From Betaproteobacteria bacterium (GTDB lineage: Bacteria; Pseudomonadota; Gammaproteobacteria; Burkholderiales; SG8-39), in NCBI GenBank assembly GCA_005881595.1, contig VBBY01000002.1:5390-69389 (forward strand): a stretch of DNA of 64,000 bases. Reading direction: 5' to 3'. Positions 32,790-50,026 of the stretch are shown here, in pieces. Under the pieces are notes generated by a model. That model searched no databases, was not told the DNA's origin, and worked only from the letters and a program-made list of their open reading frames with translations. Each line of letters starts with the position of its first letter. Position 1 is the first letter of the stretch. The position numbers and the translations under genes are program-made.

Positions 32790-32855
32790 ATCATGCCGCA
32801 AGAATTGATCGGCGTGGCCGCTAATTTCCTATCGCTTGTTGCGCTCGGCTAACCC

Positions 32856-34133
32856 ATGTATCAAGCAGAAACCCCGGCCGATTTACTCAAAAAAAAACGC
32901 AAACTTCCCGGCTCGCGCAGCAGTTGGACGCGTGTAGCGTCCACTGTCTTTCTGCTTGGGACGACGAGCCTACTCACCGATATTTCCTCTGAAATGGTGA
33001 GCGCGATGCTGCCGCTCTATTTGCTGGTGGCGCTACGCTTCTCGCCCTTTCAAGTGGGCGTGATGGATGGCCTCTATCAAGGCGCAACCGTGTTGGTCAG
33101 GGTGATGAGCGGACTGGTGGCGGATCGTTGGCGGCGACCCAAACAGGTCGCCGCAGTCGGCTATGGGTTATCGGCCGTTTGTAAGCTGGGACTTCTGATT
33201 GCGAGCAGCAGTTGGACTGCGATAGCCGGTGTGATGTTGTTGGATCGCGTTGGCAAAGGCATTCGCACTGCCCCGCGCGATGCCATGATCGCCGCTAGCA
33301 GTCAACCGGAGCAATTGGCTACGGCCTTTGGGGTGCACCGCGCCATGGACACGGCCGGCGCCATGATTGGTCCGCTGCTTGCTGTCGCGATTTTGAGCAT
33401 CGCCCCCGAACAATATGATGCCATTTTTGTCGTCAGTTTCTGTGTGGCCCTGATCGGACTGGCCGTGATCGTGCTGTTTGTCGACAATCCCGCGGACAGG
33501 GCAGTTGACGAATCGGAAGATGGCTCATCAGTCAGCCAAGCCGCTGTATCCTTGCGCAGCATGATCGCGTTGCTCTGGCAAGCCGAGTTTCGCACTTTGA
33601 TCATCGTCGGCAGCGCCTTGGCACTTGTTACAGTGAGTGACAGCCTCCTCTACCTCGTACTTCGGCAGCGCATGACGATTCCCAATGGCTTGTTCCCATT
33701 GCTCTACGTTGTCACCGCGCTGATGTTCATGATTTTCGCGATTCCGGCGGGCTGGCTTGCTGATCGCATTGGGCACAAGCCGGTTTTTTTTCTCGGCTAT
33801 GGACTGCTGGCAGGAGCCTACGGCATACTTTTAGTGCTGCAGATGAATTATCTAACTGCGGTTCTGATGTTGATTTTGTTGGGCTCGTATTACGCTGCCA
33901 CAGATGGAGTGTTCATGGCGATGGCGACTCGTGTGTTGCCAACGCATCTGCGCACCACAGGGTTGGCGCTGTTAACCACCGGGACAGGATTGGCGCGTTT
34001 GCTTGCTTCAACTCTGTATGGAATCGTCTGGAGTTGGTTTGGCGCTGAACGGGCATTGATGATCTTTATTGGTGGTCTGGTCGCGGTATTGTTGCTCGCC
34101 TGGCCCACCGTCCAGCGAGTTCTGGAGAACTGA
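32856..34133 (+). CDS. MFS transporter
   Basis: 425 aa with about 12 TM segments and an MFS loop motif (GLVADRWRRPKQV). The DNA is visibly AT-richer than the flanks. Confidence 0.85.
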   Translation: MYQAETPADLLKKKRKLPGSRSSWTRVASTVFLLGTTSLLTDISSEMVSAMLPLYLLVALRFSPFQVGVMDGLYQGATVLVRVMSGLVADRWRRPKQVAAVGYGLSAVCKLGLLIASSSWTAIAGVMLLDRVGKGIRTAPRDAMIAASSQPEQLATAFGVHRAMDTAGAMIGPLLAVAILSIAPEQYDAIFVVSFCVALIGLAVIVLFVDNPADRAVDESEDGSSVSQAAVSLRSMIALLWQAEFRTLIIVGSALALVTVSDSLLYLVLRQRMTIPNGLFPLLYVVTALMFMIFAIPAGWLADRIGHKPVFFLGYGLLAGAYGILLVLQMNYLTAVLMLILLGSYYAATDGVFMAMATRVLPTHLRTTGLALLTTGTGLARLLASTLYGIVWSWFGAERALMIFIGGLVAVLLLAWPTVQRVLEN

Positions 34134-34140
34134 GCGGGCA

Positions 34141-35298
34141 ATGTCAGCGTCATCCAACAACGTAAAGAAGCTGGTCTTTTTGCTGATTACGTTGCTATGT
34201 GTCGTTGTCGCCGTGCTTTACACTCGTTTCGCCGCCCGCACAGCCAATGTAACGGTGGGCAACCTCGCATCTGCGCCGACCGTCCAATCGCTGTCCGTTG
34301 TGCCGTTAGGTTCGCCATCGGCTAACCCTCCGGCTCATTCGCAGCGTGAGCCACTGCAACGGCCATTGGTTTCGCCGTTAGCTTCCAGATCGGATAACCC
34401 TGCCCCTCCATCGCATGAGCTAGGAGGGCAAAGCCAGGCAAAACCGCATTTGGTAGCGTTGAACTTGCGCGACTCGGCTGAGCTGGGCAAGGTGACGCTT
34501 TCAGCCCTGGACGCGGTCGACGGGCCCAGGACCACGATAAATCTGCGCTGTGAGAAAATCTATTTTGCTGCCGACAAAGGAATTTGTCTAAGCCGCGAGA
34601 TTCGCGGGTTCAGTGCACGGACTGTCGCCACCCTGGTCGACGCAAACTTTCAGCCTCTATCCAGCGTGCGCACTGATGGCATCCCGACGCGCGCCCGCAT
34701 CTCGCCAGACGGTCGCTATGCTGCGTTCACCGTCTTTGTCAGCGGCCACTCCTACGCCGATGCTCAGATGTCAACCGCCACTTTGCTGTTGGATGCAGCA
34801 GCAGGCGCCAGCCTTGGCAACCTAGAGGAATTCAAAGTGCTGCAAGATGGCAATGTCATTAAGTCGCTCGACTTCAACTACTGGGGCGTCACGTTTCAAC
34901 ACGACAGCAACTTCTTCTATGCGACCCTGCGGACGGGCGGGGTGAATTACTTGGTGCATGGCGATATCAAGGCCAAGACAGTTACAGTCACGTACAGAGG
35001 CGTCGAGTGTCCCTCGCTGTCGCCCGATGAGTCGCGCATCGCCTTCAAAAAGATGATCTCGCGCGGCAACTGGCGCTTGACTGTCCTTAATTTGACCACC
35101 TTTGAGGAAATTCCGTTAGCGGAAACAAGAAGCGTGGACGATCAAGCGGAATGGCTGGACAACGACCACGTTCTATACACCCGGCTCGAACCCGCTGCGC
35201 CACCGCCTGGGATGAGCATTATGGTTGTGTCTGCAGATGGCAGCGGTCAGGCGAAGCTGTTTGCCAAAGGCGCGGCGTCACCAGCCGTGGTTCGATGA
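34141..35298 (+). CDS. Membrane-anchored TolB-like (PD40 beta-propeller repeat) protein
   Basis: MSASSNNVKKLVFLLITLLCVVVAVLY is an N-terminal anchor. A Pro/Ser-rich linker follows, then PD40-type repeats (RISPDGRYAAF, SLSPDESRIAF). ATG 34141 lies 8 nt after the MFS stop. Confidence 0.7.
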   Translation: MSASSNNVKKLVFLLITLLCVVVAVLYTRFAARTANVTVGNLASAPTVQSLSVVPLGSPSANPPAHSQREPLQRPLVSPLASRSDNPAPPSHELGGQSQAKPHLVALNLRDSAELGKVTLSALDAVDGPRTTINLRCEKIYFAADKGICLSREIRGFSARTVATLVDANFQPLSSVRTDGIPTRARISPDGRYAAFTVFVSGHSYADAQMSTATLLLDAAAGASLGNLEEFKVLQDGNVIKSLDFNYWGVTFQHDSNFFYATLRTGGVNYLVHGDIKAKTVTVTYRGVECPSLSPDESRIAFKKMISRGNWRLTVLNLTTFEEIPLAETRSVDDQAEWLDNDHVLYTRLEPAAPPPGMSIMVVSADGSGQAKLFAKGAASPAVVR

Positions 35299-35425: not shown

Positions 35426-38400
35426 GTGAAACAAATAAAAGCTTCGACGATCCCTGTTCGCTTGATATCGTTGCTCGCGTGCGCGGCGCTCGTTGGGGGC
35501 GCAGCCTACGTGGGCGCCGATGACAGAGATGACGATCGAGATGCACGAGAGCATGAACATCACGGTCGAGATGCACACAAACTCGGTTTCGCGGGACCGG
35601 AGAACCAGAACGAGCTCTCGCGTCCGACCAATGACATCACCCTCGAGATGCACGAGGGCACGAACATGGCGGCGTCGCCATCGCCGGATGGCACAAAGAT
35701 GGTCTTGTCGCTCCAAGGCGGTTTATGGACCGTCCACGCGGGCGGCGGCACGGCGACGAAGATCACGCCGTGGGACGTCGAGGCGACGCAGCCCGTGTGG
35801 TCGCCCGACGGCCGGTGGATCGCATTCCAGAACTATTCGACGGATGCAAACTACGCGATCTGGGTCGTGAAGTCCGACGGGTCGCAACTGCACCCGCTGA
35901 CGAGCGGTCCTTTCGACGACCGCGAGCCGTCGTGGTACCCGGACTCGACCAAGGTCATCTTCTCGTCGGATCGAAGCAACGACAAGCAATACAAGATCTG
36001 GTCGGTGACGCTCGGCGGCGTGCTTAAGCAGCTCACGACGGGCACGGGCGCGGAGAGCTACCCCGTCGTCTCGCCCGACGGCACCAAGATCGCGTTCGTC
36101 AACAACGGCGACACGATCTTCACGCTGCCTGCCAACCTGAGCTCGGCGCCGACGCGGTTTGGCGGCGGCAACTATCCGCAGTGGACGCCGAACAGCGCGA
36201 ACCTCGTGTACCAGAACGGCGGCAATCTCATCGTGAACGGCAGCGCGGTCACGAGCGGCGAGGACCTATTCCCGTTCCCGGTGCAGTACATGGGTCAGAA
36301 CAAGTTCGTCTATACAGCGGACGGCAAGATTCGCACGCGCGACGCCACTGGCGGCAACCTGCAGGACATGGCATTCAGCGCGACGCAGGTCGTACGTCGG
36401 CCAAAGTTTACGCGATCCATGATCCGGTCTAGCTTGGGCGCGACGGAAACCCAGCGCGTGAAGGGCATCAACGGCGCCGTCATCTCGCCTGACGGTCAGC
36501 GGGTCGCGTTCATCGCGCTGAACGACCTATGGGTCATGAAGATCGGCTCGGCGCCGGAGCGTCTCACCAACGACATCGACCGCGACGTCGACCCGCGCTG
36601 GACCGCCGACGGCCAATTCATCTACTGGTCTAGCGACAAGAACAACGCCGGAAGCCTCGCCGTCGACAAGATCGACATCGTCACCAAGCGGCGCACGCGC
36701 GTTGCGGCGATCGAGAGCGTTTCGATGATCCAGCCGACGCTGTCGCCAGACGGGAACCGCTTTGCCTATACGACCGGTTCGGGTCTCACCGAGGTTATGG
36801 ACATCGCGACGCGCACACGCACGGCGCTCGTCCCGCAGGTTTCGCCGCAACCGCAGGTGAGCCGGCCGTTCTGGTCGCGCGACGGCAGCAAGCTCATGGT
36901 CGTCGACAACGAGCGCATCAATCCCCGGTTCCGCGAGGGTTACAACAAGCTGCGCGTCATCGACATCGCCACCAAGACCGCCACGTTCTACGCGGTCGGG
37001 CCCGCGCCGGCGGTGGTCTCCGACCGCACGGAAGGCGCAGCCGCGTGGTCGCCCGACGGCACGAAGGTCGCTTTCATCAGCGACTCGGTGCTCAAGGTCA
37101 TGCCCACCAACGCTGACGGCTCGCCCTCCGGTGCCGCCGTGCAGCTCACGAGCGAAGCGTCCGACATGCCGTCATGGCAGGCCGATTCCCAGACGCTCCT
37201 GTACATGGCGAGCGGCAAGCTGAAGAAGATAAAGGCGGACGGAACAGGGCAGGAGGACGTCCCGCTCCACCTGAGCTACAAGCCGGCCGCGCCGAAGGGC
37301 AGGACCGTCATCCACGCGGGCGCGCTCTGGAACGGTCTCGATCCGGTGCTGCAGCGCAACGTCGACATCGTCATCCAGGACAACAGGATCATCTCGATCG
37401 AGCCGCAGAAAAACCGTTCGCAGCCGCCGGGGACGACGATCATCGACGCCTCCAACCAGACGGTGCTGCCGGGCTACTGGGATCCGCACTTCCATCCGCT
37501 GAACGTCTACCAGGGCAGCCAGTTCAACTTGGTGTGGGCGGCGATGTTCGCGTACGGGATCACCTCGGTGCAGTCGGTGGCCGGCCCGATCTACGCGAGC
37601 ACGGAGATCCGCGAGGCGCTCGACGCCGGCAACATGGTCGGCCCGCGGCTCTTCACGTCATCGCCGCTCCTCGAAGGCAATCGGGTGTCGTATGACATGT
37701 CGCGCTCGGTGCGGAACGCCGAGGTGGCGGACCGCGAGGTCAGCCGCTATGCCGCAGTCGATATCGACTGGATCAAGACGTATGTGCGCAACCCGATCCC
37801 GGCGATGAGGCGGTTGGCGGCGGGCGCGCACAAGATGGGCATCCCGAGCGGTACGCACCTTTTGAGTCCAGGGTACTGGACCGGTATCCAGGGCCTCACG
37901 CACCTGCAGGCGACGCAGCGGGTGGGGTACGGCTGGGCGAAGTCGCCCGCAGGCGTTGCCTATCAGGACGTGAATGCGCTCGTCGGCCCCGGCGAGGTGC
38001 ACCTCATGGAGACGCTGGGGTCGATCCGGCTCGCCGCGCAAAGTCCCATCCTTCTGAGCGGTGACCGCTTCAACGTGCTGATGCCGATCCCGTACGTGGG
38101 CAACCTGCTGTCGCAGACCCCGCCCACGCCGGCGCAGCTCGCGACGCTCAAGGTGGCCACCGACGACGACGCGCGGGCGATCGAAGCAGGCGCGCTCTTC
38201 GCCATCGGCACGGACGTGCCGCTCAACCCGCCGGGCGTCCAGAACCACGCGAGCCTGATGGCGCTGGGCCTCAGCATGTCGAATCACCAGGCGCTCCAGG
38301 CCATGACGATCAACGCGGCCAAGATGAGCTTCAAAGACAGGGATCTGGGCAGCGTCGAGAAAGGCAAGCTGGCGGACCTGGTGATCGTCGACGGCAATCC

Positions 38401-38605
38401 GCTCGACGACCTCAAGTACGCCGCCGCGGTACGTTACGTCGTGAAGAACGGCGTCGCGTACTCGCTGGACTTGATCATGGCGCCGTTCAAGTCCTCGGCT
38501 CAGCTCGCCGCGCGTCGCAACGCTCTCGTCGCATTCGAGAAGGCCTGCAAGCAGGACGCGAGCAACTGCTACGTCGAGATGAGCCAGATTTGTGCTGGAA
38601 ACTGA
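35426..38605 (+). CDS. Secreted multidomain protein: about 11 PD40 repeats (two TolB-like propellers) fused to a C-terminal amidohydrolase-superfamily domain
   Basis: Signal peptide, then an Asp/His-rich stretch (DDRDDDRDAREHEHHGRDAH). Repeated SPDG motifs follow (SPDGTKM, SPDGRWIAF, SPDGTKIAF, SPDGQRVAF, SPDGNRFAY, SPDGTKVAF...). The C-terminal domain has LPGYWDPHFHP (HxH metal motif) and GSVEKGKLADLVIVDGNPL. GTG start has an AGAGGGGG Shine-Dalgarno. Confidence 0.82.
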   Translation: MKQIKASTIPVRLISLLACAALVGGAAYVGADDRDDDRDAREHEHHGRDAHKLGFAGPENQNELSRPTNDITLEMHEGTNMAASPSPDGTKMVLSLQGGLWTVHAGGGTATKITPWDVEATQPVWSPDGRWIAFQNYSTDANYAIWVVKSDGSQLHPLTSGPFDDREPSWYPDSTKVIFSSDRSNDKQYKIWSVTLGGVLKQLTTGTGAESYPVVSPDGTKIAFVNNGDTIFTLPANLSSAPTRFGGGNYPQWTPNSANLVYQNGGNLIVNGSAVTSGEDLFPFPVQYMGQNKFVYTADGKIRTRDATGGNLQDMAFSATQVVRRPKFTRSMIRSSLGATETQRVKGINGAVISPDGQRVAFIALNDLWVMKIGSAPERLTNDIDRDVDPRWTADGQFIYWSSDKNNAGSLAVDKIDIVTKRRTRVAAIESVSMIQPTLSPDGNRFAYTTGSGLTEVMDIATRTRTALVPQVSPQPQVSRPFWSRDGSKLMVVDNERINPRFREGYNKLRVIDIATKTATFYAVGPAPAVVSDRTEGAAAWSPDGTKVAFISDSVLKVMPTNADGSPSGAAVQLTSEASDMPSWQADSQTLLYMASGKLKKIKADGTGQEDVPLHLSYKPAAPKGRTVIHAGALWNGLDPVLQRNVDIVIQDNRIISIEPQKNRSQPPGTTIIDASNQTVLPGYWDPHFHPLNVYQGSQFNLVWAAMFAYGITSVQSVAGPIYASTEIREALDAGNMVGPRLFTSSPLLEGNRVSYDMSRSVRNAEVADREVSRYAAVDIDWIKTYVRNPIPAMRRLAAGAHKMGIPSGTHLLSPGYWTGIQGLTHLQATQRVGYGWAKSPAGVAYQDVNALVGPGEVHLMETLGSIRLAAQSPILLSGDRFNVLMPIPYVGNLLSQTPPTPAQLATLKVATDDDARAIEAGALFAIGTDVPLNPPGVQNHASLMALGLSMSNHQALQAMTINAAKMSFKDRDLGSVEKGKLADLVIVDGNPLDDLKYAAAVRYVVKNGVAYSLDLIMAPFKSSAQLAARRNALVAFEKACKQDASNCYVEMSQICAGN

Positions 38606-38634
38606 GGCGCGTTAACCGCGATCCGACGAAAAAG

Positions 38635-38670
38635 GCCCGCCGATCCAAGCTTTAGTCGGCGGGCTTTTCG
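38635..38670. terminator. Bidirectional rho-independent terminator between convergent genes
   Basis: gcccgccga (38635-43) pairs with tcggcgggc (38656-64). It is flanked by aaaa on the left and ttttcg on the right. Confidence 0.7.
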
Positions 38671-38716
38671 CTTGGGCCTCGCGCTCCGGCGTTACCTCCG
38701 GGCCGCAGAAGGGGTT

Positions 38717-39232
38717 TCATTTCTTCCATTTGATGGAGCAGCCGATCGACGCGATCTGCTCCTTCGGGCCGATGCCGGTGTTGGCGATCTGCACCATCGC
38801 CTCAAACAGCTCGCGGCGCGCGTTCGGCACCGGATCGCGGCGCGAGGCGTCGAGCCGGCCGCGGTACTGCAGCTCGAGCCCGGCATTGAAGCCGAAGAAA
38901 TCCGGCGTGCACGCCGCGCCATAGGCGCGCGCCACATCCTGCGTCTCGTCGAGAAGGTACTGAAACGGAAACCTTTTCTCGCGGGCGATGCGCTTCATGT
39001 TCTCGAAGGAGTCCTCCGGATACTCGGTGGGATCGTTCGACATCACGGCTACAGAGGCGACCCCTTGCGCCGAGAGCTCCCTGCAGTCGCGGATAATGCG
39101 GTCGATCACCGCCTTGACGTACGGACAATGGTTGCAGATGAACATCACCACCAGCCCTTTCGGGCCGCGCACGGCGGCGAGGTCGTGGCGCTTGCCGTCG
39201 ACGCCCGGCAGATCGAAGTCTGGCGCCTGCAT
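38717..39232 (-). CDS. Thioredoxin-fold protein (AhpC/TSA-like, CxxC)
   Basis: MQAPDFDLPGVDGKRHDL...VVMFICNHCPYV (CxxC). 171 aa. Confidence 0.85.
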   Translation of the reverse strand: MQAPDFDLPGVDGKRHDLAAVRGPKGLVVMFICNHCPYVKAVIDRIIRDCRELSAQGVASVAVMSNDPTEYPEDSFENMKRIAREKRFPFQYLLDETQDVARAYGAACTPDFFGFNAGLELQYRGRLDASRRDPVPNARRELFEAMVQIANTGIGPKEQIASIGCSIKWKK

Positions 39233-39275
39233 GCAAAGATCGTAACATGAAGGATACCGTCGCCCGCGCCCCGCG
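39215..39275. repeat. Direct repeat copy A (61 bp), containing the trx-like start codon and a 10-codon vestige of the rsmE 5' end
   Basis: Manual alignment to 43689..43749 gives 51/61 identical positions without gaps. It contains atgaaggataccgtcgcccgcgccccgcggtga, which encodes MKDTVARAPR-stop, compared with the rsmE N-terminus MKDTAARAPRFYV. Confidence 0.8.
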
Positions 39276-39285
39276 GTGATGATCC

Positions 39286-40350
39286 TCAGTCATCCGAATG
39301 ATCACGATAACCGCTCTTTTTCATCCAGCTCGGCACTGGCGGCGTCGGCACGCGCGCCGGCTTGGGAGCGACTCGCTGGACCGGAGTCACCGGAGTCGAC
39401 GCCGGAATCGAGGTAGGGACTTTGGAGCTCGCCGGATAGCTCGCCGGATTTTTGAGAACGCTATCGAGATTGCCGACCTTCATCGGATGCTGCTGCACCA
39501 TGGCCGCCACGGCAGCGGCGAGTTGATCGATTTCCCGCGATCCGATACGACGTAATTGTTGCCAAATCGCCGATCGATCCAACTGGTGGAAATCTTCGCG
39601 CACGAAGATCAGATTGTCGCCGGTATGAAAACGTTCCCATAGGGTGAGATCCCTCTCCAGCGCCGCCAGCGAGAGATAGATGACGAGAGCTGAAAACCGA
39701 TCGATCTCTTGGCCGTAGTCGCGCTCGCTACGTTCGGGATGTTGGTAGGCACGGTGGCCGAGCTCCGTGGCGTTGCGGCCCTTTAAGGCCGGTACCCACG
39801 TGCCGTCGTAGTCCACCAAATGGATCGATCCGCCGCGCACCAGGATATTACCGTGCTGTAAATCGCCGTGCGCCACCTGAGCGGCTTCGAGGTGGCGAAC
39901 TAGGGTGACCCATTTTGCCCGCAATGCCGCCAGTAATGCCGGAAAGCGTAAATGCTTCTCGATATGAGTGTGCAGAAGGTCGCCCTCCGCCCATTGCATC
40001 TTGACGATCGGGAACCAGTTGGAGCGAATTTGGATGCCCTGCTTGAGAAACTGAAAATTGACGTCATAGGGCAGGTGGACCTTGCGAAGATGTTTGGAGA
40101 TCGCCTCATAACGTTCGGCATGGTCGCTGATCGGGCGCAGGAAGCAGCGAATCGCCCAGGTCTTCTTGAATGATAAAAACCTGCCCGGTTCGCTGGCCTT
40201 GTAGACCACGGCGTTGCCGCCGGTGGCCGGCTTGGGCATACCGAACCGATCGAGCTCGAGGGTGACCGCTTTTAATCCCGGGTCAGCAAAGGCCCTTTGC
40301 GGGTGCTGAACCGCCTCATGGTATTCGGTCAGGTCTGGCCATGCCCCCAT
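39286..40350 (-). CDS. Ser/Thr protein-kinase-like protein with Pro-rich C-terminal tail (third gene of the vWA-PP2C-kinase triad)
   Basis: Gly-loop-like TGGNAVVYKA, catalytic loop HGDLQHGN, Mg-binding-loop-like LVDYDG and GHRAYQHPER. The beta3 position reads AIRCF (Arg). AAGGAG Shine-Dalgarno lies 9 nt upstream of the ATG, and the ATG is 2 nt after the PP2C stop. Confidence 0.75.
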   Translation of the reverse strand: MGAWPDLTEYHEAVQHPQRAFADPGLKAVTLELDRFGMPKPATGGNAVVYKASEPGRFLSFKKTWAIRCFLRPISDHAERYEAISKHLRKVHLPYDVNFQFLKQGIQIRSNWFPIVKMQWAEGDLLHTHIEKHLRFPALLAALRAKWVTLVRHLEAAQVAHGDLQHGNILVRGGSIHLVDYDGTWVPALKGRNATELGHRAYQHPERSERDYGQEIDRFSALVIYLSLAALERDLTLWERFHTGDNLIFVREDFHQLDRSAIWQQLRRIGSREIDQLAAAVAAMVQQHPMKVGNLDSVLKNPASYPASSKVPTSIPASTPVTPVQRVAPKPARVPTPPVPSWMKKSGYRDHSDD

Positions 40351-40352
40351 CG

Positions 40353-41138
40353 CTATCTCTCCTTCGCTTCAACCGGTGAACCGTGATGAATGACACGGAC
40401 GAGGGTAAAGTCGTCGTTGCGCAATCCATTTTTGCGGCCGTAGGCGACCATTGCGGCAAAGCTCTCTGGCGTACCGAGCTTCCGGTAAAGCCACTTCCAT
40501 AATGGCCGCCCCTCTTCATGCTGTCTAAGCAGCCAGGCGGCCACCGCATCGGTGGCGAGCAGAAGCATGTCTCCATCGCGCAGGCTGCCCTTGCTGATTT
40601 GTATCCGTTCGTTCAGTGATTCGCCGTCCGACCTGGAGCCGATGAGATAAGGGCTCATCGTGAATTGCGAAGATTTCTGTAAGGGAAACGCTTCCACCAC
40701 CCGCATCCCTTTACCGACGTCATCGACCTGCATAAGGCAACAGTCACCCACGGCCAGCGCCGTCCAACGGTTCTTGTGAGCGTCAATCTGAACACCGAGA
40801 AAAGCCGCAAAGGCGCCCTGCTCGGCCTTTTCGCTGGCGAACCAGGGGAGAGGTCGGCCCGCCAATCTTCGCCGCCAGAGGCGGCGCGCCGGCTTCAACC
40901 GCGCAAAAAACTCTGCCCCGGCGACCTCACTTCGCATATAGCTTTCGGCCAACAGCACTGCCCATAACTTGGCAAAACTGCTTTCGGTGGCGCCGTCAGC
41001 CACCGCCACGCGGATGCCGACCGGGGTGCGAGTTTGCCGATGCGCCCAGGCGTCCTCGTACTCCTCAAGACTGTTGCCCGACTTCGGGCAGCAGAAGACC
41101 TTTATGTCGCACTCGTTGGCCGCCGTGGCGTGCTTCAC
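40353..41138 (-). CDS. PP2C-family Ser/Thr protein phosphatase
   Basis: EEYEDAWA, VAVADGATES, AVGDCCLM, GDMLLLATDAV and NDDFTLV correspond to the metal-binding Asp motifs of PP2C. GTG start at 41138. Confidence 0.72.
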   Translation of the reverse strand: MKHATAANECDIKVFCCPKSGNSLEEYEDAWAHRQTRTPVGIRVAVADGATESSFAKLWAVLLAESYMRSEVAGAEFFARLKPARRLWRRRLAGRPLPWFASEKAEQGAFAAFLGVQIDAHKNRWTALAVGDCCLMQVDDVGKGMRVVEAFPLQKSSQFTMSPYLIGSRSDGESLNERIQISKGSLRDGDMLLLATDAVAAWLLRQHEEGRPLWKWLYRKLGTPESFAAMVAYGRKNGLRNDDFTLVRVIHHGSPVEAKER

Positions 41139-41165
41139 CGCAGGAGGTGCCCACTGCAGTGGTAC

Positions 41166-42038
41166 TCAGCGCAGACGCACATTAGCCGGCCGCGTGCCGA
41201 TATCGAGAAAATGGATTACGTGCAACGGTTGCGCGTTAAAGATGAATCCGCGCGAGTCTTCCGCCGCCGGCATACCCAGCTCTGTCGCGCGTGCAACCAT
41301 GAACGGCGTGAGCGTCGATGAGGCCTCAAAGAGCTGTTTGGCATGTTGATCCGGGAGCTTGTTGGCGTTGCCCGGTAATTCGATCGATGGTCCGGCCGTC
41401 GACGAAAGATGGATGTTGAAGAGCAACACCGAGCCGTCGTCGCCACTGACCGCCGTTAACTTGCGCGCCTCGGCAATGAGGTCTCCATCCGTTGCCTCGC
41501 CGTCGGTGATGTTGATGACGATCGGCGGAAATCCCGTCGGATGCTCCTCACACCAGGTCTCGACAATCCGGGTTGCCTCCTTGAGCGCGGCGCACATCGG
41601 AGTGCCCCCTTTCCAATATGGGTCGAACCAGACTGGAAATTTCACGGTTTGGTCCACCACTCCGCCGGCGCCATCATCCGATTTCTTTGTTCTCTCTTCG
41701 ATGCGCAACGGCTTATTGGCCAATTCACTGATCGGTACCAAAGAGCGCCCGCTCAGTTCACCGCCGAGCGCTGGTTTACAGCTCTCTTCGCTGTAGCCCA
41801 GCACACCGACATGAAAGTAGTCGTAAATGGAGTCCGATTTGGCGCAACGGATGCTCAGATTGTGAATGAGCTTGTTGAGTATCGTCGCCAGCTCCTCGGC
41901 CTTCTTTCTGCCAGCCTCTCCGCCGCCAAAAGGGTCTTCCATCGACTCTGACTGGTCGACCAAAAACAAGAAACAACCCGGGTTCTTACGACTGATTTCG
42001 GCCTGGTATGCCATGGTTTCCCTCGCCTTTTGCATCAT
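41166..42038 (-). CDS. von Willebrand factor A (vWA) domain protein, TerY-like
   Basis: MIDAS motif LFLVDQSESM (DxSxS), GGTPMCAAL (Thr) and INITDGEATDG (Asp). Start set at ATG 42038, 6 nt after an AAGGAG Shine-Dalgarno. The ORF is open up to GTG 42122. Confidence 0.78.
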   Translation of the reverse strand: MMQKARETMAYQAEISRKNPGCFLFLVDQSESMEDPFGGGEAGRKKAEELATILNKLIHNLSIRCAKSDSIYDYFHVGVLGYSEESCKPALGGELSGRSLVPISELANKPLRIEERTKKSDDGAGGVVDQTVKFPVWFDPYWKGGTPMCAALKEATRIVETWCEEHPTGFPPIVINITDGEATDGDLIAEARKLTAVSGDDGSVLLFNIHLSSTAGPSIELPGNANKLPDQHAKQLFEASSTLTPFMVARATELGMPAAEDSRGFIFNAQPLHVIHFLDIGTRPANVRLR

Positions 42039-42278
42039 GACTCGCTCCTTCGGGGCGCCCTCGCGCGTGAACTTTCGCAATCTTCTCAGAGCGACCTTGA
42101 TATTGCGTGTGCGCGAGTTCACAGAATCGTCTAGATTCCGGTACTCCCGCTGGTCCCAGACCTTGACCGCGGCTCGGTTGCGCGAGCTTTCCTGCCCGAT
42201 GCGGGTGCCCTCGGGGTTGTAGCCATAGGCGCCGGTCGGCTCGCAGCCGCAGCGACTCCGTCAGATCGCCTTCACCGT

Positions 42279-43706
42279 TCACGCCCTTACCAGCCAGCGA
42301 ACGACGCTGTAGTGCGCCGCGGCGAGCTGTTGCGGAAGCTCCAGGTGCCCGTAATGCGTCATCGGCAGGTCCCAGTTGATCAACCGTACCTGCGCCTCCG
42401 GATTTTTCGCCCGGTATTCGTTCGCGATGAACACCTCGATGCTTCTCATCGGCTCCTCGGCATTCCAGTGGTTGCGGTCGAGCTTCGCCGTCGTCCAGAC
42501 CATGCGCTGGAAACCGTCCATGCGGGTGAAATTGGTGGCGTACAGATCCTTCTCGACGTCCTCGACGGCGATGCGCCAGGGATTGCCGGTGCGCTTGAGC
42601 AGGGATTCGATCTCGTTCTCCACCCACGCCTTTTCTCCGAGGTCGGCCCCGTGCTCGAGGTTCTGCAGCTGCTGCTTGAAGTTGGGACGCCGGCGCGCCT
42701 CCGCCGCGAGCCAGCGTTGGGCGATCTGAAGGTGCGTCATGCCCGCTTCGTAGAGCGGATTGAGAAAGCCGCTGTAGCCGCGGGCGTAGCTCGGCGGGTC
42801 GCGTCGTTCCAGAACGTGGAGCGGCGTCTTTCCCGCCTGGCGGGAAGCGCCGGCACGGGCCACGATTTCCTTGCCCCTGACCTTGCGCAACAGCTCGAGC
42901 CGCGCCGGTCCCCCGCTGCCCCAGCCCAGGTAACGACCCTTGAGCCGGGGGCGCAGGTCTGGATCCTCGTAGGCGAGCATCGAAAGCTCGCCGGAGGTCG
43001 AATGCCCGATCAGCAGGATGTCGCCCGAGGTGTGCCTGGTCACCAGCGCCTTCAGCCCCTGCAGGATCAGGCTGTTGGTGTAGATCGCGTTGCGCATCTC
43101 GTACTCGTCCATGGACAGATCGCGATCGAGCAAATATGCGGGCTGGCGCCTGGCGTCCAGGACCGGCAGGTCCCAGCCGCCATATTTGAAGTTGCCGGGA
43201 ATGGTCACGATCATGACGTTGAGCTTCTGCGCCAGGTATTGCGCCCAGCCGGGACGGTTCTTCAGGTCGACGTAGAATTCGTAGAAATTCGCCGCGCCGC
43301 CGTTGATGATGATGAACCACGGATAATTTCTCGCCTCCGGATTGAGGCTCGCGAGGCGCAGGGCCGTGATGTCCCAATCGAGGTTGTAGCGGCGAAAACG
43401 CTCGACGATCCAGTCTGCCTTGTAGCCGAGCTGCTGCGCGGGGAGCCTGGCGACATCGCGCGGATCGAAGGCGCCGCCATCAGCCTTCCCTGCCAGGGCG
43501 GTGATCGATTTTCCGCCGTCCGGCAGATCGAAGCCCGCGCCGAGGGCGCGCAAGTCGGACTCCGCCAGCGAAACGTACGCCGCCTTCCCGTCGTCGAGCA
43601 GAGTCCAGATCTTCTGTTCGAGACCTTGGGATTGCGCCAGGACGAATCCGGCCGGAAGGATTGCCGCGAAAAGAGCGAGCACCGCGCCGAAGCCTTTCGC
43701 CTTCAT
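42279..43706 (-). CDS. Secreted alpha/beta-hydrolase-fold protein, function unknown
   Basis: MKAKGFGAVLALFAAILPAGFVLAQS signal peptide and a GHSTSG nucleophile elbow (GxSxG). Its first 6 codons lie inside repeat copy B. Confidence 0.65.
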   Translation of the reverse strand: MKAKGFGAVLALFAAILPAGFVLAQSQGLEQKIWTLLDDGKAAYVSLAESDLRALGAGFDLPDGGKSITALAGKADGGAFDPRDVARLPAQQLGYKADWIVERFRRYNLDWDITALRLASLNPEARNYPWFIIINGGAANFYEFYVDLKNRPGWAQYLAQKLNVMIVTIPGNFKYGGWDLPVLDARRQPAYLLDRDLSMDEYEMRNAIYTNSLILQGLKALVTRHTSGDILLIGHSTSGELSMLAYEDPDLRPRLKGRYLGWGSGGPARLELLRKVRGKEIVARAGASRQAGKTPLHVLERRDPPSYARGYSGFLNPLYEAGMTHLQIAQRWLAAEARRRPNFKQQLQNLEHGADLGEKAWVENEIESLLKRTGNPWRIAVEDVEKDLYATNFTRMDGFQRMVWTTAKLDRNHWNAEEPMRSIEVFIANEYRAKNPEAQVRLINWDLPMTHYGHLELPQQLAAAHYSVVRWLVRA

Positions 43707-43749
43707 GCAAAAATCCTACCATGAAGGATACGGCTGCCCGCGCCCCGCG
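43689..43749. repeat. Direct repeat copy B (61 bp), containing the hydrolase start codon and the functional rsmE start
   Basis: See copy A: 51/61 identity, same orientation, 4474 bp apart. Confidence 0.8.
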
Positions 43750-44458
43750 CTTCTACGTGGCCGCTGCGCTGCGCGCCGGCGGCGCTTGCGTGCTGCCCGA
43801 GGACGCGGCGCACCATGCAGTGCGCGTGCTGCGCGTGCGCGCCGGTGACGCGATCACGCTCTTCAACGGTCGCGGCGGAGAGTTTGCGGCTCGCGTCGCG
43901 GCCATCGAGCGTCTGCGCATCAGCGTCGAGGTGCTGGAGCATCACGCCATCGAGCGCGAGTCGCCGTTGCATCTGGTGCTCGTGCAGGGCGTATCCTCCG
44001 GCGAGCGCATGGACTTTACGGTGCGCAAGGCGGTCGAGCTGGGCGTGGCCGAGATCAGGCCGGTGCTGGCGGCGGCGTCCGTGGCGCGGCCCAGGGGCGA
44101 GCGCGCAGCGGCGCGCCACGTTCACTGGCAGAAAGTCGCGATCGCCGCCTGCGAGCAATGCGGGCGCAACCGGGTGCCTGCAGTGCAGCCGATGGTGAAT
44201 GCGGCCGAGTACCGCGAAGACGGCGCAGGGACAAGAATCCTGCTGTCGCCGCGCGCCGAGCTCGCGCTCTCGAAAGTGGGAATCGAGCGGGCCGTGACGA
44301 TCGCCGCGGGGCCGGAGGCGGGATTCAATGCACGGGAGGAAGCCGCCTTTCTGGAAAGCGGCTTCGTGCCGGCCAGCCTCGGTCCGCGCATCCTGCGGAC
44401 CGAGACCGCGGCGCTCGCCGCGCTCGCCGCGCTCGGCGCTTTGCGGGGAGACTTTTAG
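43721..44458 (+). CDS. rsmE: 16S rRNA (uracil1498-N3)-methyltransferase
   Basis: MKDTAARAPRFYV...EDAAHHAVRVLRVRAGDAITLFNGRGGEFAARV and a C-terminal SPOUT region (GPEAGF..E, LGPRILRTETA). Confidence 0.88.
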   Translation: MKDTAARAPRFYVAAALRAGGACVLPEDAAHHAVRVLRVRAGDAITLFNGRGGEFAARVAAIERLRISVEVLEHHAIERESPLHLVLVQGVSSGERMDFTVRKAVELGVAEIRPVLAAASVARPRGERAAARHVHWQKVAIAACEQCGRNRVPAVQPMVNAAEYREDGAGTRILLSPRAELALSKVGIERAVTIAAGPEAGFNAREEAAFLESGFVPASLGPRILRTETAALAALAALGALRGDF

Positions 44459-46742: not shown

Positions 46743-48433
46743 TTCTTGCGCTGCGGCGGCAGGTCGGTGCACACGCCCTCGAACAGCTCCGCCGCCATGC
46801 CGACCGATTCGCTGAGCGTCGGGTGCGGGTGGATGGTCTTGCCGAGGTCGGTCGCGTCGGACCCCATCTCGACCGCGTGCGCAATCTCGCTGATCAGGTC
46901 GCCGGCGCCGGTGCCGACGATGCCGCCGCCGATGATGCGGTGCGTCTCGCCGTCGAAGATCAGCTTGGTGAAGCCTTCATCGCGCGCGTTGGCAATCGCC
47001 CGCCCCGAGGCCGCCCACGGGAATTTCGCGACGCCGATCTGCATGCCGTTCTTTTTCGCCTCGTCCTCGGTGACGCCGGCCCAGGCGATCTCGGGGTCCG
47101 TGAAGGCCACCGAGGGAATGACGCGCGCGTCGAAGTGCGCTTTCTGGCCGGCGGCCGCCTCGGCTGCGACATGGCCCTCGTGCACCGCCTTGTGCGCGAG
47201 CATCGGGTTGCGGGCGATATCGCCGATGGCATAGATATGCGGCACGTTGGTGCGCATCTGGGAGTCGGTCTCGATGAAGCCGCGCTCGGTCACCGCGATG
47301 CCCGCCTTGTCGGCGCCGATCTTCCCGCCGTTCGGCACCCGGCCGACCGAGACGAGCACCAGGTCGTAGGTCTTCGAGTCCTTGCCGTCGAAAAAGATCC
47401 TGATGCCGTCTTTGGCCGCTTCCGCTTTGGTCGTCCTGGTCCTCAGCATCACCTCGTCGAAGCGGCCGGCATTGAATCTCTGCCACACCGCGACCAGATC
47501 GCGGTCGGCGCCGAGCATCAGCCCATCCATCATCTCGACCACGTCGAGCCGCGCGCCGAGCGTCGAGTAGACGGTGCCCATCTCCAGGCCGATGATGCCG
47601 CCGCCGATCACCAGCATCTTTTTCGGCACGCCCTTGAGCTCCAGCGCCGCCGTGGAATCGACGATGCGCGGGTCGTCGGGAAGGAAGGGAAGCTTCGCCG
47701 CCTGCGAGCCGGCGGCGATGATAGCGGACGCGAAGCGCACGGTTTTACTGCCGTCCTTGCCTTCCACCTGTAGACGATTCTTATCCAGAAAAGTCCCGAC
47801 CCCCTGGACCACCGTGACCTTGCGCATCTTCGCCATCGAGGCGAGCCCGCCGGTGAGCTTTCCGACCACCTTGTCCTTGAACGCGCGCAGCTTGGCGAGG
47901 TCGAGCTTCGGCTGGCCAAACGTGACGCCGTGGTCGGCGAGACCGCGCGCGGCGTCCATGACGGCCGCGGTATGCAGGAGCGCCTTCGAGGGAATGCAGC
48001 CGACGTTGAGGCACACGCCGCCCAGCGTCGGATAGCGCTCGACCAGCACCGTCTTCAGCCCGAGGTCGGCGGCACGAAATGCCGCCGAATAGCCGCCCGG
48101 CCCGGCGCCCAGGACGACGATGTCGCATTCGAGATCCGCTGAGGCGGAAGGCGCAGGCGGCGCCGGCTGGGGCGCTGCAGGCCTTTTTTGGGGTTGCGCC
48201 GATTCCAGGACCAGGATCGGCGAGCCCTGCGAGACCTTGTCGCCGAGCTTGATTCTCAGCTCCTTGACTACTCCCGCGCCCGGCGACGGAATCTCCATCG
48301 TCGCCTTGTCGGACTCGAGCGTGATGAGGGACTGCTCCTTCGCCACTGCGTCGCCGAGCTTGACCAGGACCTCGATGACCTCGACGTCCTTGAAGTCCCC
48401 GATGTCGGGGACCTTCACTTCGATTCCGGGCAT
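46739..48433 (-). CDS. lpdA: Dihydrolipoyl dehydrogenase (E3) with N-terminal lipoyl domain
   Basis: An N-terminal lipoyl domain ([11 protein letters not shown]) is followed by GAGPGGY, the redox disulfide [10 protein letters not shown] and the C-terminal HPHPTLSE. Confidence 0.95.
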
Positions 48434-50026
48434 CTAGAGAATCAACTTTCTGATGTCCGAGAGCACCGACACGAGGTAGCTGGAGAAGCGGGCGGCGGTC
48501 GCGCCATCGATGACGCGATGGTCGTAGGAGAGCGATAGCGGCAGCATCAACCGGGCTTTGAAGCTGTCTTTGTCCTTCTCGTCCTTCCCGGCAAATACGG
48601 GACGGAATGCGGACCGCGAGACGCCCAGGATCGCCACCTCGGGCGCGTTGATGATCGGCGTGAAAGCGGTGCCGCCGATGCCGCCCAGGCTCGAGATCGA
48701 GAAGGTCCCGCCCTGCATGTCGCCGGGCTTGAGCTTGCCGTCGCGCGCCAGCTTGGAGATGTCGGCCAGCTCGTGCGCGAGGTCGAACACGCCCTTGCGG
48801 TCCGCATCGCGCACCACCGGCACCACCAGCCCGCCGGGCGTGTCGACCGCCACGCCGATGTGAAAGTACTTCTTGATGACGATGCTTTCGCCCGACCTGT
48901 CGAGCGACGAGTTGAACACCGGGTACTGTCGCAGCGCGGTGACGCAGGCCTTGATCATGAAGGCCAGCATCGTGAGCTTGAAGCCCTGCTTCTCGGTCTC
49001 GACCGTCTGCGCCTTGCGAAAGGCCTCGAGCTCGGTGATGTCGGCCTCATCGAACTGCGTGACGTGCGGGATCGAGATCCAGTTGCGGTGCAGGTAGGGC
49101 CCTGACAGCTTCTGGATGCGCGACAGCGGCTTCACCTCGACCGGGCCGAACTTCGCGAAATCGACTTCCGGCCAGGAGGGAAGGCTGAAGGGCAAGGCGC
49201 CGCCGGCCTTTGCCGCAGGCGCAGACGCGGGCGCGCCCTGCAGCACGCCTTTCACGAAGGCCTGCACGTCGGATTGCAGGATGCGGCCCTTCGGCCCGCT
49301 GCCGCGCAGCCTCGTCAGATCGACGCCGAGCTCGCGTGCGAACTTGCGCACCGACGGGCTGGCATGAGGCTTCGCCGTCGCTTCCTCTTGCGGCTCGCGC
49401 GGCACTGGACGCGAGGCAGGAGCCGCAGCGATCGGCGCAGGGGCCGGCGCGGGCGCCGCCGCCTTTGGGGCAGCGGGCTTTGGCGCCCCGGCAAGCGCCT
49501 GGTCTTTCGACTTGAGCACGAGGATCGGCGTATCCCTGGAAACCTTGTCGCCGATCTTGACCCTGATCTCCTTCACCACGCCCGCAGCGGGGGAGGGGAT
49601 TTCCATCGTCGCCTTGTCCGACTCGAGCGTGATCAGCGACTGCTCCTTGGAAACGGCGTCGCCCGGCTTGACGAGCACCTCGATGACCTCGACCTCCTTG
49701 AAATCGCCGATATCCGGCACGGGAACGGTCAGGTCGCTGGACGCCTCGGTCTTCGGTTTCTGTTCTCCTCTCTTCTCCCCGCTCTTGGGCTTTTCCTCCG
49801 CATCGAGCTCGAGGATCGGCGTGCCCTGCGACACCTTGTCGCCCATCTTTACCTTCAATTCCTTGACCACGCCGGCCGCAGGCGACGGTATCTCCATCGT
49901 CGCCTTGTCCGACTCCAGCGTGATCAGCGACTGCTCCTTGGACACGGCGTCGCCCGGCTTCACTAGTACCTCGATGACCTCGACTTCCTTGAAGTCGCCG
50001 ATGTCCGGAACGACCACTTGACTCAT
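48434..50026 (-). CDS. aceF: Dihydrolipoamide acetyltransferase (PDH E2) with two lipoyl domains
   Basis: Two lipoyl domains ([10 protein letters not shown] twice), an E3-binding domain (ASPSVRKFARELGVDL) and a catalytic domain (LSLSYDHRVIDGA). ATG 50026 overlaps the aceE stop (ATGA). Confidence 0.95.
   Translation of the reverse strand: MSQVVVPDIGDFKEVEVIEVLVKPGDAVSKEQSLITLESDKATMEIPSPAAGVVKELKVKMGDKVSQGTPILELDAEEKPKSGEKRGEQKPKTEASSDLTVPVPDIGDFKEVEVIEVLVKPGDAVSKEQSLITLESDKATMEIPSPAAGVVKEIRVKIGDKVSRDTPILVLKSKDQALAGAPKPAAPKAAAPAPAPAPIAAAPASRPVPREPQEEATAKPHASPSVRKFARELGVDLTRLRGSGPKGRILQSDVQAFVKGVLQGAPASAPAAKAGGALPFSLPSWPEVDFAKFGPVEVKPLSRIQKLSGPYLHRNWISIPHVTQFDEADITELEAFRKAQTVETEKQGFKLTMLAFMIKACVTALRQYPVFNSSLDRSGESIVIKKYFHIGVAVDTPGGLVVPVVRDADRKGVFDLAHELADISKLARDGKLKPGDMQGGTFSISSLGGIGGTAFTPIINAPEVAILGVSRSAFRPVFAGKDEKDKDSFKARLMLPLSLSYDHRVIDGATAARFSSYLVSVLSDIRKLIL

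Follow-up and report, generated by a model that had tools for sequence, protein, structure and literature searches.

TerY-P is a triad of a von Willebrand factor A (vWA) protein, a PP2C phosphatase and a Ser/Thr kinase, which the original comparative genomics (Anantharaman, Iyer and Aravind 2012, cited in the passages of PMC11090510 that concern the triad) proposed to be a metal-sensing phosphorylation switch. As far as those passages and their counterparts in PMC7699616 go, two forms are described: that of the original triad and of the CoCoNuT systems, whose kinase carries a fused zinc ribbon, and a stand-alone anti-phage form, in which it is fused to an OB fold. The same passages give anti-phage activity as published, with E. 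coli being protected against T7-like phages. In Pseudomonas aeruginosa, TerY-P protects against Autographiviridae at both low and high multiplicity of infection and most cells survive, which argues against abortive infection (10.1101/2022.08.12.503731). Here we analysed a triad of this type in a 64,000-nucleotide stretch of DNA (hereafter the window) from a Betaproteobacteria bacterium (contig VBBY01000002.1, positions 5,390 to 69,389). An earlier sequence-only reading had singled out the triad as TerY-P-like and ascribed phage resistance to such systems, which the passages cited from the two PMC articles and the P. aeruginosa experiments bear out. Current tools recognise the triad as TerY-P; its short-kinase architecture and its cross-phylum spread as a 3-kb unit are new.

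The triad consists of three co-directional minus-strand open reading frames (ORFs) within 39286-42122, ordered vWA, PP2C phosphatase, kinase. Re-measuring the gaps gave 27 nt from the vWA stop to the PP2C GTG and 2 nt from the PP2C stop to the kinase ATG, in agreement with the tight spacing reported earlier, and the same contiguous co-directional arrangement was found in all close loci. A PADLOC profile check matched all three proteins to TerY-P models: the vWA protein to TerY (7.1e-99, over model positions 1-277 of 277), the phosphatase to PP2C (1.9e-30) and the kinase to STK_OB (2e-74). The Pfam families VWA (2.6e-5), PP2C_2 (2.2e-6, above the gathering score) and Pkinase (1.7e-6, below it) were matched weakly, so that the vWA, PP2C and kinase assignments of the sequence-only reading all find a profile. 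An NCBIfam search of the triad proteins returned no specific model, and a PDB sequence search found relatives for none of the three. We consider it very probable that the triad belongs to the TerY-P protein families. Like the stand-alone TerY-P (Gao et al. 2020; PADLOC), it combines the same three families in the same order with the same tight spacing; unlike it, the window kinase has no OB-fold C-terminus and carries a linker and a 15-residue peptide instead.

This difference lies beyond the kinase domain. The kinase gene (39286-40350, minus strand) encodes the domain together with a conserved N-terminal extension in residues 1 to ~300 (39451..40350), which match positions 2-289 of the 562-position STK_OB model and leave positions 290-562 unmatched. 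A Pro/Ala/Ser-rich linker follows (approximately residues 301-339, 39334..39450, minus strand), which is predicted to be disordered (predicted local distance difference test score, pLDDT, 55-65), varies in length and is indel-rich across 27 orthologues. The protein then closes with the conserved C-terminal motif PSWMKKSGYRDHSDD and the stop codon (39286..39333, minus strand), kept in 27 of 27 orthologous cassettes with the 15-residue consensus PSWMKK[SG]GYR[DN]xSDD (PSWMKKxGYRxxSDD). This terminal peptide occupies the place of the transmembrane, OB, zinc-ribbon or WD40 regions of relatives. By sequence inspection, kinase residues 300-354 contain no Cys, no His cluster and no hydrophobic segment, and OB-fold, zinc ribbon, transmembrane segment and WD40 domain are all absent from the kinase; Pfam found no zinc ribbon on it, whereas the relative P0155 does match DZR.

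Among 147 representatives of the kinase family, 133 are longer than 520 residues and 6 have at most 400. About 90% of the relatives' kinases continue for 200-450 residues past the point where the window kinase stops, and these C-termini are hypervariable, comprising WD40 propellers, double zinc ribbons, a second kinase-like domain or transmembrane segments. Metagenomic kinase homologues of 345-354 residues nevertheless number in the hundreds. Of 132 family representatives, 67 have a P-x-W-[MLIV] motif past the kinase domain, compared with 8.7 expected from shuffles, and in 53 of those 67 a transmembrane-like segment comes next. Because this motif sits behind the linker in so many relatives, the short kinase can be said to keep a family-wide juxta-domain motif and to drop everything beyond it. 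Judged from these sequences, the short kinase is a stable architecture rather than a one-off truncation. It is a third kinase architecture for TerY-P, a previously undescribed short form with neither OB fold nor zinc ribbon, and the absence of a C-terminal domain, which had been overlooked, is the feature that truly sets the locus apart. The locus had been thought to be a divergent, uncharacterised variant on account of an insertion in the vWA protein and an atypical kinase beta3 residue; a variant it is, but by its short kinase tail and not by either of those features. We also considered a split arrangement with the OB domain encoded by the downstream gene. Downstream genes, however, differ among contexts (AhpC, ORFs of 52, 212 and 223 residues, DUF480, a pilin-like gene; in the window, an AhpC/TSA peroxiredoxin), and those checked have a host-like G+C content at third codon positions (GC3), so this possibility was rejected.

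We estimated the ratio of nonsynonymous to synonymous substitution rates (dN/dS) by the Nei-Gojobori method. The vWA gene gave 0.16, the PP2C gene 0.22 and the kinase gene 0.28; within the kinase, the values are 0.24 for the domain, 0.66 for the linker (residues 297-339) and 0.23 for the terminal motif. Purifying selection acts on all three triad genes. The triad is intact in every one of ~30 species-level metagenome-assembled genomes (MAGs) where the contig permits, and no complete cassette copy contains a frameshift or premature stop.

Homology limits against copies in other genomes delimit a mobile cassette of 2.95 kb (39278..42234, minus strand), which comprises the triad and a leader (42015..42234) common to some other copies (91% identity with locus L015, 95.5% with L116). 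In blastn comparisons the cassette shares 84-95.5% identity with copies from MAGs of Gemmatimonadota and Rokuibacteriota and from other contigs of soil origin, while the flanks are unrelated. Names of cluster mates of the kinase, the hydrolase and ArgA mark the window host as a Betaproteobacteria/Burkholderiales soil MAG. With the window, the carriers thus span three phyla (Betaproteobacteria, Gemmatimonadota and Rokuibacteriota); two copies occur in one of the Rokuibacteriota MAGs. GC3 is 0.69-0.70 in the triad versus 0.84-0.92 in the flanking host genes of the window; the contrast recurs in other hosts, and the GC content of the cassette is below that of every host. The triad is therefore compositionally foreign, as the sequence-only reading had it, and the near-identical copies in unrelated flanks, together with a cassette-free haplotype (L085), likewise uphold its view of an accessory insert that moved horizontally. 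The near-identity of copies in three soil phyla documents that a defence-type cassette has recently been transferred over long range.

A tRNA gene lies within ~500 nt of the cassette in at least 14 of 29 loci (L017, L019, L020, L022, L029, L030, L032, L033, L036, L041, L043, L044, L070 and L071), in seven distinct contexts: Leu, Cys, Ser, Lys/Arg/His, Asn, His+Trp and Met. In L032, L033 and L043 the cassette has tRNA-His on one side and tRNA-Trp on the other. Within 5.5 kb of the tRNA-adjacent cassettes no intact integrase recurs, and the window itself has no tRNA gene. Many copies carry a conserved trailer 3' of the kinase that ends at different points (L001 11057-11450, also L021, L022, L016, L044, L045 and L071), of which the window retains 8 nt. 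In L001 the trailer is followed by a 52-residue ORF (..TRSIFDRYNIIDEGDL..) and then by an apparent partial tRNA-Cys. The ORF looks like the C-terminus of a tyrosine recombinase, which, if real, would point to an ancestral integrase-borne island; Pfam matched nothing in the leader and trailer translations, this integrase-like fragment included. An integron-type cassette is not supported: homology ends 0-110 nt past the stop and no common attC-like element was seen, although no dedicated attC search was made. Carriage by phages or plasmids was not found either: IMG/VR viral contigs and INPHARED phage records hold no close relatives of the cassette proteins, and the only plasmid relatives are two distant cyanobacterial ones at 39-45% identity.

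To place the kinase within its family, 1.84 billion representative proteins were searched exhaustively, which yielded 6,956 related clusters. The AlphaFold2 model of the window kinase (mean pLDDT 90.9, predicted TM-score 0.86) is confident for residues 1 to ~305 and low in the tail, and in Foldseek it matched Hanks-type protein kinases, including B. subtilis YabT, at TM-scores of 0.5-0.66. Its motifs are AxRCF in beta3 (R68), H161-G-D163-x4-N168 (HGDLQHGN), D180-Y-D182 (VDYDG) and YQHP. The kinase-fold protein with HGDLQHGN, VDYDG and a Pro-rich tail recorded in the sequence-only reading is thus present as stated. H161, D163, N168 and D182 do not vary among 147 family members, and HGDLQHGN, DYDG and YQHP are near-invariant across 149 of the best-ranking family representatives. 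As in Hanks-type Ser/Thr kinases, the window kinase has a bilobal fold, an HxD...N loop and a DFG-equivalent Asp; unlike in them, the beta3 Lys/alphaC Glu pair is absent from its whole family. The beta3 position, in a near-invariant A-x-R-C-F, is Arg in 126 and Lys in 22 of the 149 representatives. The Arg68 that had been noted as atypical is real, but as the consensus of 126 of 149 representatives it is a hallmark of the whole kinase family and not a sign of divergence. The alignment of window residues 66-81 shows no invariant alphaC Glu; instead, R80 and Y81 are invariant. That Arg stands in for the canonical ATP-binding Lys across a kinase family is worth a biochemical look. The clade of the window kinase has Asn46 where 138 of 149 relatives have a Gly-loop Phe. 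P0133 (668 residues) and similar relatives carry a second, degenerate kinase-like domain (AIKCF, HGDLDPSN, VDYDC) in a tandem kinase/pseudokinase architecture.

The TerY-like vWA protein (41166..42014, minus strand) has 282 residues, and the motifs DQSESM, GGTPM and TDGE can be read from its sequence. Its metal-ion-dependent adhesion site (MIDAS; D20-x-S22-x-S24, T138, D171) had been called intact; all five residues are invariant in 49 vWA homologues, and the vWA fold is confirmed in the AlphaFold2 model (pLDDT 82.4), which among PDB folds agrees best with integrin I-domains and the ANTXR2 vWA domain. The gene had been started at 42038. The conserved start is the ATG at 42014, since model position 1 of PADLOC, homology and the gene calls in relatives agree there, and ATGs further upstream are either missing from relatives or out of frame in them. 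The protein has ~90 residues more than classical vWA domains; in the AlphaFold2 model they include a beta-hairpin at residues 104-128. The long insertion described earlier is therefore real, but it is family-typical rather than divergent, because homologues are uniformly 279-282 residues long, all with the extra segment, and the match to the PADLOC model covers its full length.

The PP2C-type Ser/Thr phosphatase (40353..41138, minus strand) has 261 residues, a GTG start and an N-terminus that is variable among relatives; PP2C_2 scores 27.8 bits against a cut-off of 24. Its sequence contains YEDAW, VADGA, VGDC, ATDA and NDDFT, and the corresponding ED, DG, GD, TD and DD metal-binding motifs are kept down to ~28% identity in alphaproteobacterial triads. 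The expected Asp motifs are thus in place and conserved in a protein that both PADLOC and Pfam recognise. The window PP2C (261 residues) and vWA protein (282 residues) are reported in one 90% cluster of 750 members in the protein collection, a grouping that fused or overlapping gene calls have presumably produced as an artefact. With regard to translation signals, the AAGGAG sites ascribed to the three genes occur before the kinase ATG and before the ATG at 42038, whereas the 27-nt spacer that precedes the PP2C gene lacks one; the vWA start at 42014 is preceded by GAGGGA.

The triads embedded in CoCoNuT systems (Type II and III-A, McrBC-related) resemble the window locus in uniting vWA, PP2C and Ser/Thr kinase in a supposed phosphorylation switch (PMC11090510). 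They differ in that their kinase has a C-terminal zinc ribbon and DNA- or RNA-processing genes are linked, neither of which applies to the window: PADLOC found no McrBC, helicase or nuclease neighbours there, and none recurs in 148 flanking ORFs of the cassettes. Distant triads in Bradyrhizobium and Xanthobacteraceae MAGs have kinases of 534-629 residues with an OB-fold-like C-terminus, that is, the canonical form; OB-type C-termini appeared in no triads but such distant ones. E. coli YegL-PphC(YegK)-YegI, which had been named as a related arrangement, shares the three superfamilies and their order. BLASTP of YegL, PphC and YegI against the window proteins, however, gave E-values of 1e-4, 0.01 and 0.12, and none of the three matched a TerY-P model. 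Their membership of the family was therefore rejected and, with only superfamily motifs in common, YegL-PphC-YegI is on sequence grounds an analogous arrangement and not a family-level relative. YegL, at 219 residues, lacks the hairpin insertion of the window vWA protein, and YegI is membrane-anchored by two transmembrane passes, whereas the window kinase has no hydrophobic segment after its kinase domain. The E. coli proteins are informative in another respect: PphC dephosphorylates YegI in vitro, which supports the logic of a kinase/phosphatase pairing, and YegI is an active kinase although canonical residues are missing (10.1101/303594, 10.1101/819920). PD-T4-6 and MkoA of Mokosh, which employ a Ser/Thr kinase as immune effector, show weak kinase-domain similarity (E = 4e-6 to 5e-7, PADLOC) but belong to different families and have no vWA and PP2C partners.

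We favour, as a reasonably probable reading of these analyses, that the horizontally acquired 2.95-kb cassette encodes a TerY-P-type three-protein phosphorylation switch in a short-kinase form, its anti-phage role included. The vWA protein would act as a sensor or scaffold that binds a protein ligand via its MIDAS site, and, as long as no infection occurs, PP2C would keep both the kinase and its substrates in a dephosphorylated state. A phage- or stress-derived ligand engaging the complex would let kinase activity prevail, and the kinase, as the output enzyme of the switch, would phosphorylate phage or host targets such that infection is blocked without cell death, as is reported for P. aeruginosa TerY-P. 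Since domains for nucleic-acid binding, membrane insertion or a propeller are all missing from the kinase, recognition of targets or partners would have to come from the vWA protein, the conserved N-terminal extension of the kinase and its tethered C-terminal peptide. Speculatively, PSWMKKxGYRxxSDD may be a docking motif for the vWA MIDAS or for PP2C, or a peripheral membrane anchor. One could go further and see a minimal TerY-P, in which the core alone suffices for function and the tethered peptide docks onto a partner (for example, its acidic end completing the MIDAS), the cassette being mobilised in trans. Neither a recombinase nor a recognisable promoter is present in the 2.95-kb unit, which adjoins at least seven different tRNA loci, and the lack of recombinase and promoter combined with the recent spread through three phyla would imply mobilisation in trans. 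We hold this extended proposal to be improbable. Nonetheless, a minimal version conserved across phyla narrows the essential activity to the vWA MIDAS, the PP2C, the kinase core and the short tail motif, and the 2.95-kb cassette is a compact construct for mechanistic work on TerY-P.

Several observations weigh against an immune short-kinase switch. The experimentally validated TerY-P systems have an OB-fold kinase, which is missing in the window, and the kinase family is without the canonical beta3-Lys/alphaC-Glu pair, so that its catalytic chemistry is putative. A promoter and terminator scan of the cassette region gave nothing above chance, and no promoter could be recognised. The genomic surroundings do not speak for defence either. 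In the window, PADLOC had no further match close to the triad, defence-like neighbours were present in only 2 of the first 6 contexts (AbiEi/AbiEii in one, a methyltransferase and an AAA_13 ATPase in the other), and no defence family recurs in 148 flanking ORFs from 18 distinct contexts. The top matches among these ORFs are three ABC-type ATPases and two generic Ser/Thr kinases; the commonest Pfam families are response regulators, RibD_C, LuxR/GerE, PAS and ABC transporters. Because no defence family recurs in this limited sample, the defence-island enrichment that the sequence-only reading looked for around homologues was not found.

These surroundings would suit a non-immune switch along the lines of the original idea of a Ter-dependent stress response, in which a metal or a signal from the envelope would be sensed by the MIDAS vWA protein and the kinase and phosphatase would reversibly regulate a host process. 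The neighbours of the cassette are regulatory, transport and metabolic rather than defence genes, the window copy lies directly upstream of the AhpC/TSA peroxiredoxin gene with no terminator between, one copy is near TerC and Usp genes, and a metal-sensing switch was the original comparative-genomics proposal, as the cited passages of PMC11090510 relate. Entry of the cassette into unrelated contexts in three phyla, however, argues against a host-specific regulatory circuit; the only experimental TerY-P phenotypes reported are anti-phage, and the examined segment of the window contains no Ter genes (TerB/C/D/Z). A stress or metal switch is therefore an unlikely account in our view. That the cassette travels on its own behalf is a further thought: the kinase would be a growth-arresting toxin, PP2C its antidote and defence a by-product, and the pair would keep the cassette in place in whatever genome it enters. 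The pairing of antagonistic enzymes in a compact unit without a recognisable promoter, its spread between phyla at 84-95% nucleotide identity, with sharp ends and without any mobility genes belonging to it, and the two copies in one MAG are all compatible with such an addiction-like module. A two-part toxin/antidote does not explain why the vWA gene is the most conserved (dN/dS 0.16), P. aeruginosa TerY-P acts without a toxicity-type collapse (10.1101/2022.08.12.503731), and the cassette-free haplotype L085 coexists in the same population, which makes a selfish module quite doubtful. The short kinase could finally be what is left of a longer one, in a system that lost its effector or sensor domain and no longer functions; it does end soon after the linker where 90% of relatives run 200-450 residues further, and the window copy sits in a rearranging hotspot among other gene fragments. 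Yet purifying selection acts on the three genes and on the terminal motif, the identical architecture occurs in ~30 species and hundreds of metagenomic clusters, and all complete copies are free of frameshifts and stops, and we regard a decaying remnant as very improbable.

Turning to what surrounds the triad, downstream of it the window has a single terminator-like hairpin with a T-run, at 38635-38650 on the minus strand, after the AhpC/TSA gene. The cassette and AhpC could therefore be co-transcribed, although the scan that gave this hairpin did not exceed chance as a whole. An Rfam search of 38500-44000 gave zero matches. The locus neighbourhood (window 38716-43960; L085, L116 and L105) exists in at least three structural forms at 93-99% identity. 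In the window form, rsmE and a hydrolase gene diverge, and the hydrolase gene is followed by the cassette, a 29-nt rsmE fragment and AhpC. In the cassette-free L085 form, rsmE and AhpC diverge, and AhpC is followed by the hydrolase gene, whereas in the L116 form the order is hydrolase, a ~240-nt rsmE fragment, AhpC, 630 nt and the cassette, so that the triad comes after AhpC. All contigs with an identical AhpC carry the kinase alongside, so that within its population the window form is a common one. A rearrangement hotspot occupies the stretch from rsmE to the genes near 32800.

The insert had been described as repeat-bounded. A direct repeat of 62 nt, 84% identical between its copies, does exist at 39214-39275 and 43688-43749, each copy being made up of the 5' end of rsmE, a divergent intergenic region of 14 nt and the opening codons of the leftward gene. 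Copy A (39214..39275), which abuts the 3' end of the cassette, holds a dead fragment of 29 nt from the rsmE 5' end, the intergenic stretch and the start of AhpC; copy B (43688..43749) holds the functional start of rsmE, the intergenic stretch and the chimeric hydrolase start. The copies are not a target-site duplication but diverged rsmE/AhpC segments in the hotspot. A simple insertion with target-site duplication was rejected given their 84% identity, the three or more locus variants and the different position of the triad in two of them.

The hydrolase gene (42279..43706, minus strand) lies outside the cassette and encodes a secreted 475-residue protein with a GHSTSG motif, a putative alpha/beta-hydrolase that Pfam, PADLOC and NCBIfam searches all left without a match. 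It is a discrete module (42262-43707 in the window), 96-97% identical in the unrelated flanks of L076, L078, L079 and L084, where it has its own conserved leader with a hairpin (AAACCGGGGCGGCCACCGGTTT). In the window its start is chimeric, ATG-AAG-GCG-AAA being fused to an AhpC-type intergenic region. As a fourth component of the system it was rejected, being a separate module with host-like GC3 (0.84) that is absent beside the triad in every other cassette context.

Elsewhere in the hotspot, the region 32856-35298, with an MFS transporter and a 409-residue PD40-repeat protein at a low GC3 of 0.64-0.65, looks like a second accessory block. In L085, the MFS, PD40-repeat and PD40-amidohydrolase genes (the last at 35426-38605, GC3 0.87) are replaced by the hydrolase gene and 2.9 kb absent from the window. 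Secondary BLAST hits of L105 revealed segments of ~208 nt that repeat at ~48207-48412, 49515-49720 and 49805-50019 with 82-87% identity; these are probably the lipoyl-domain repeats of pyruvate/2-oxoacid dehydrogenase genes beside lpdA.

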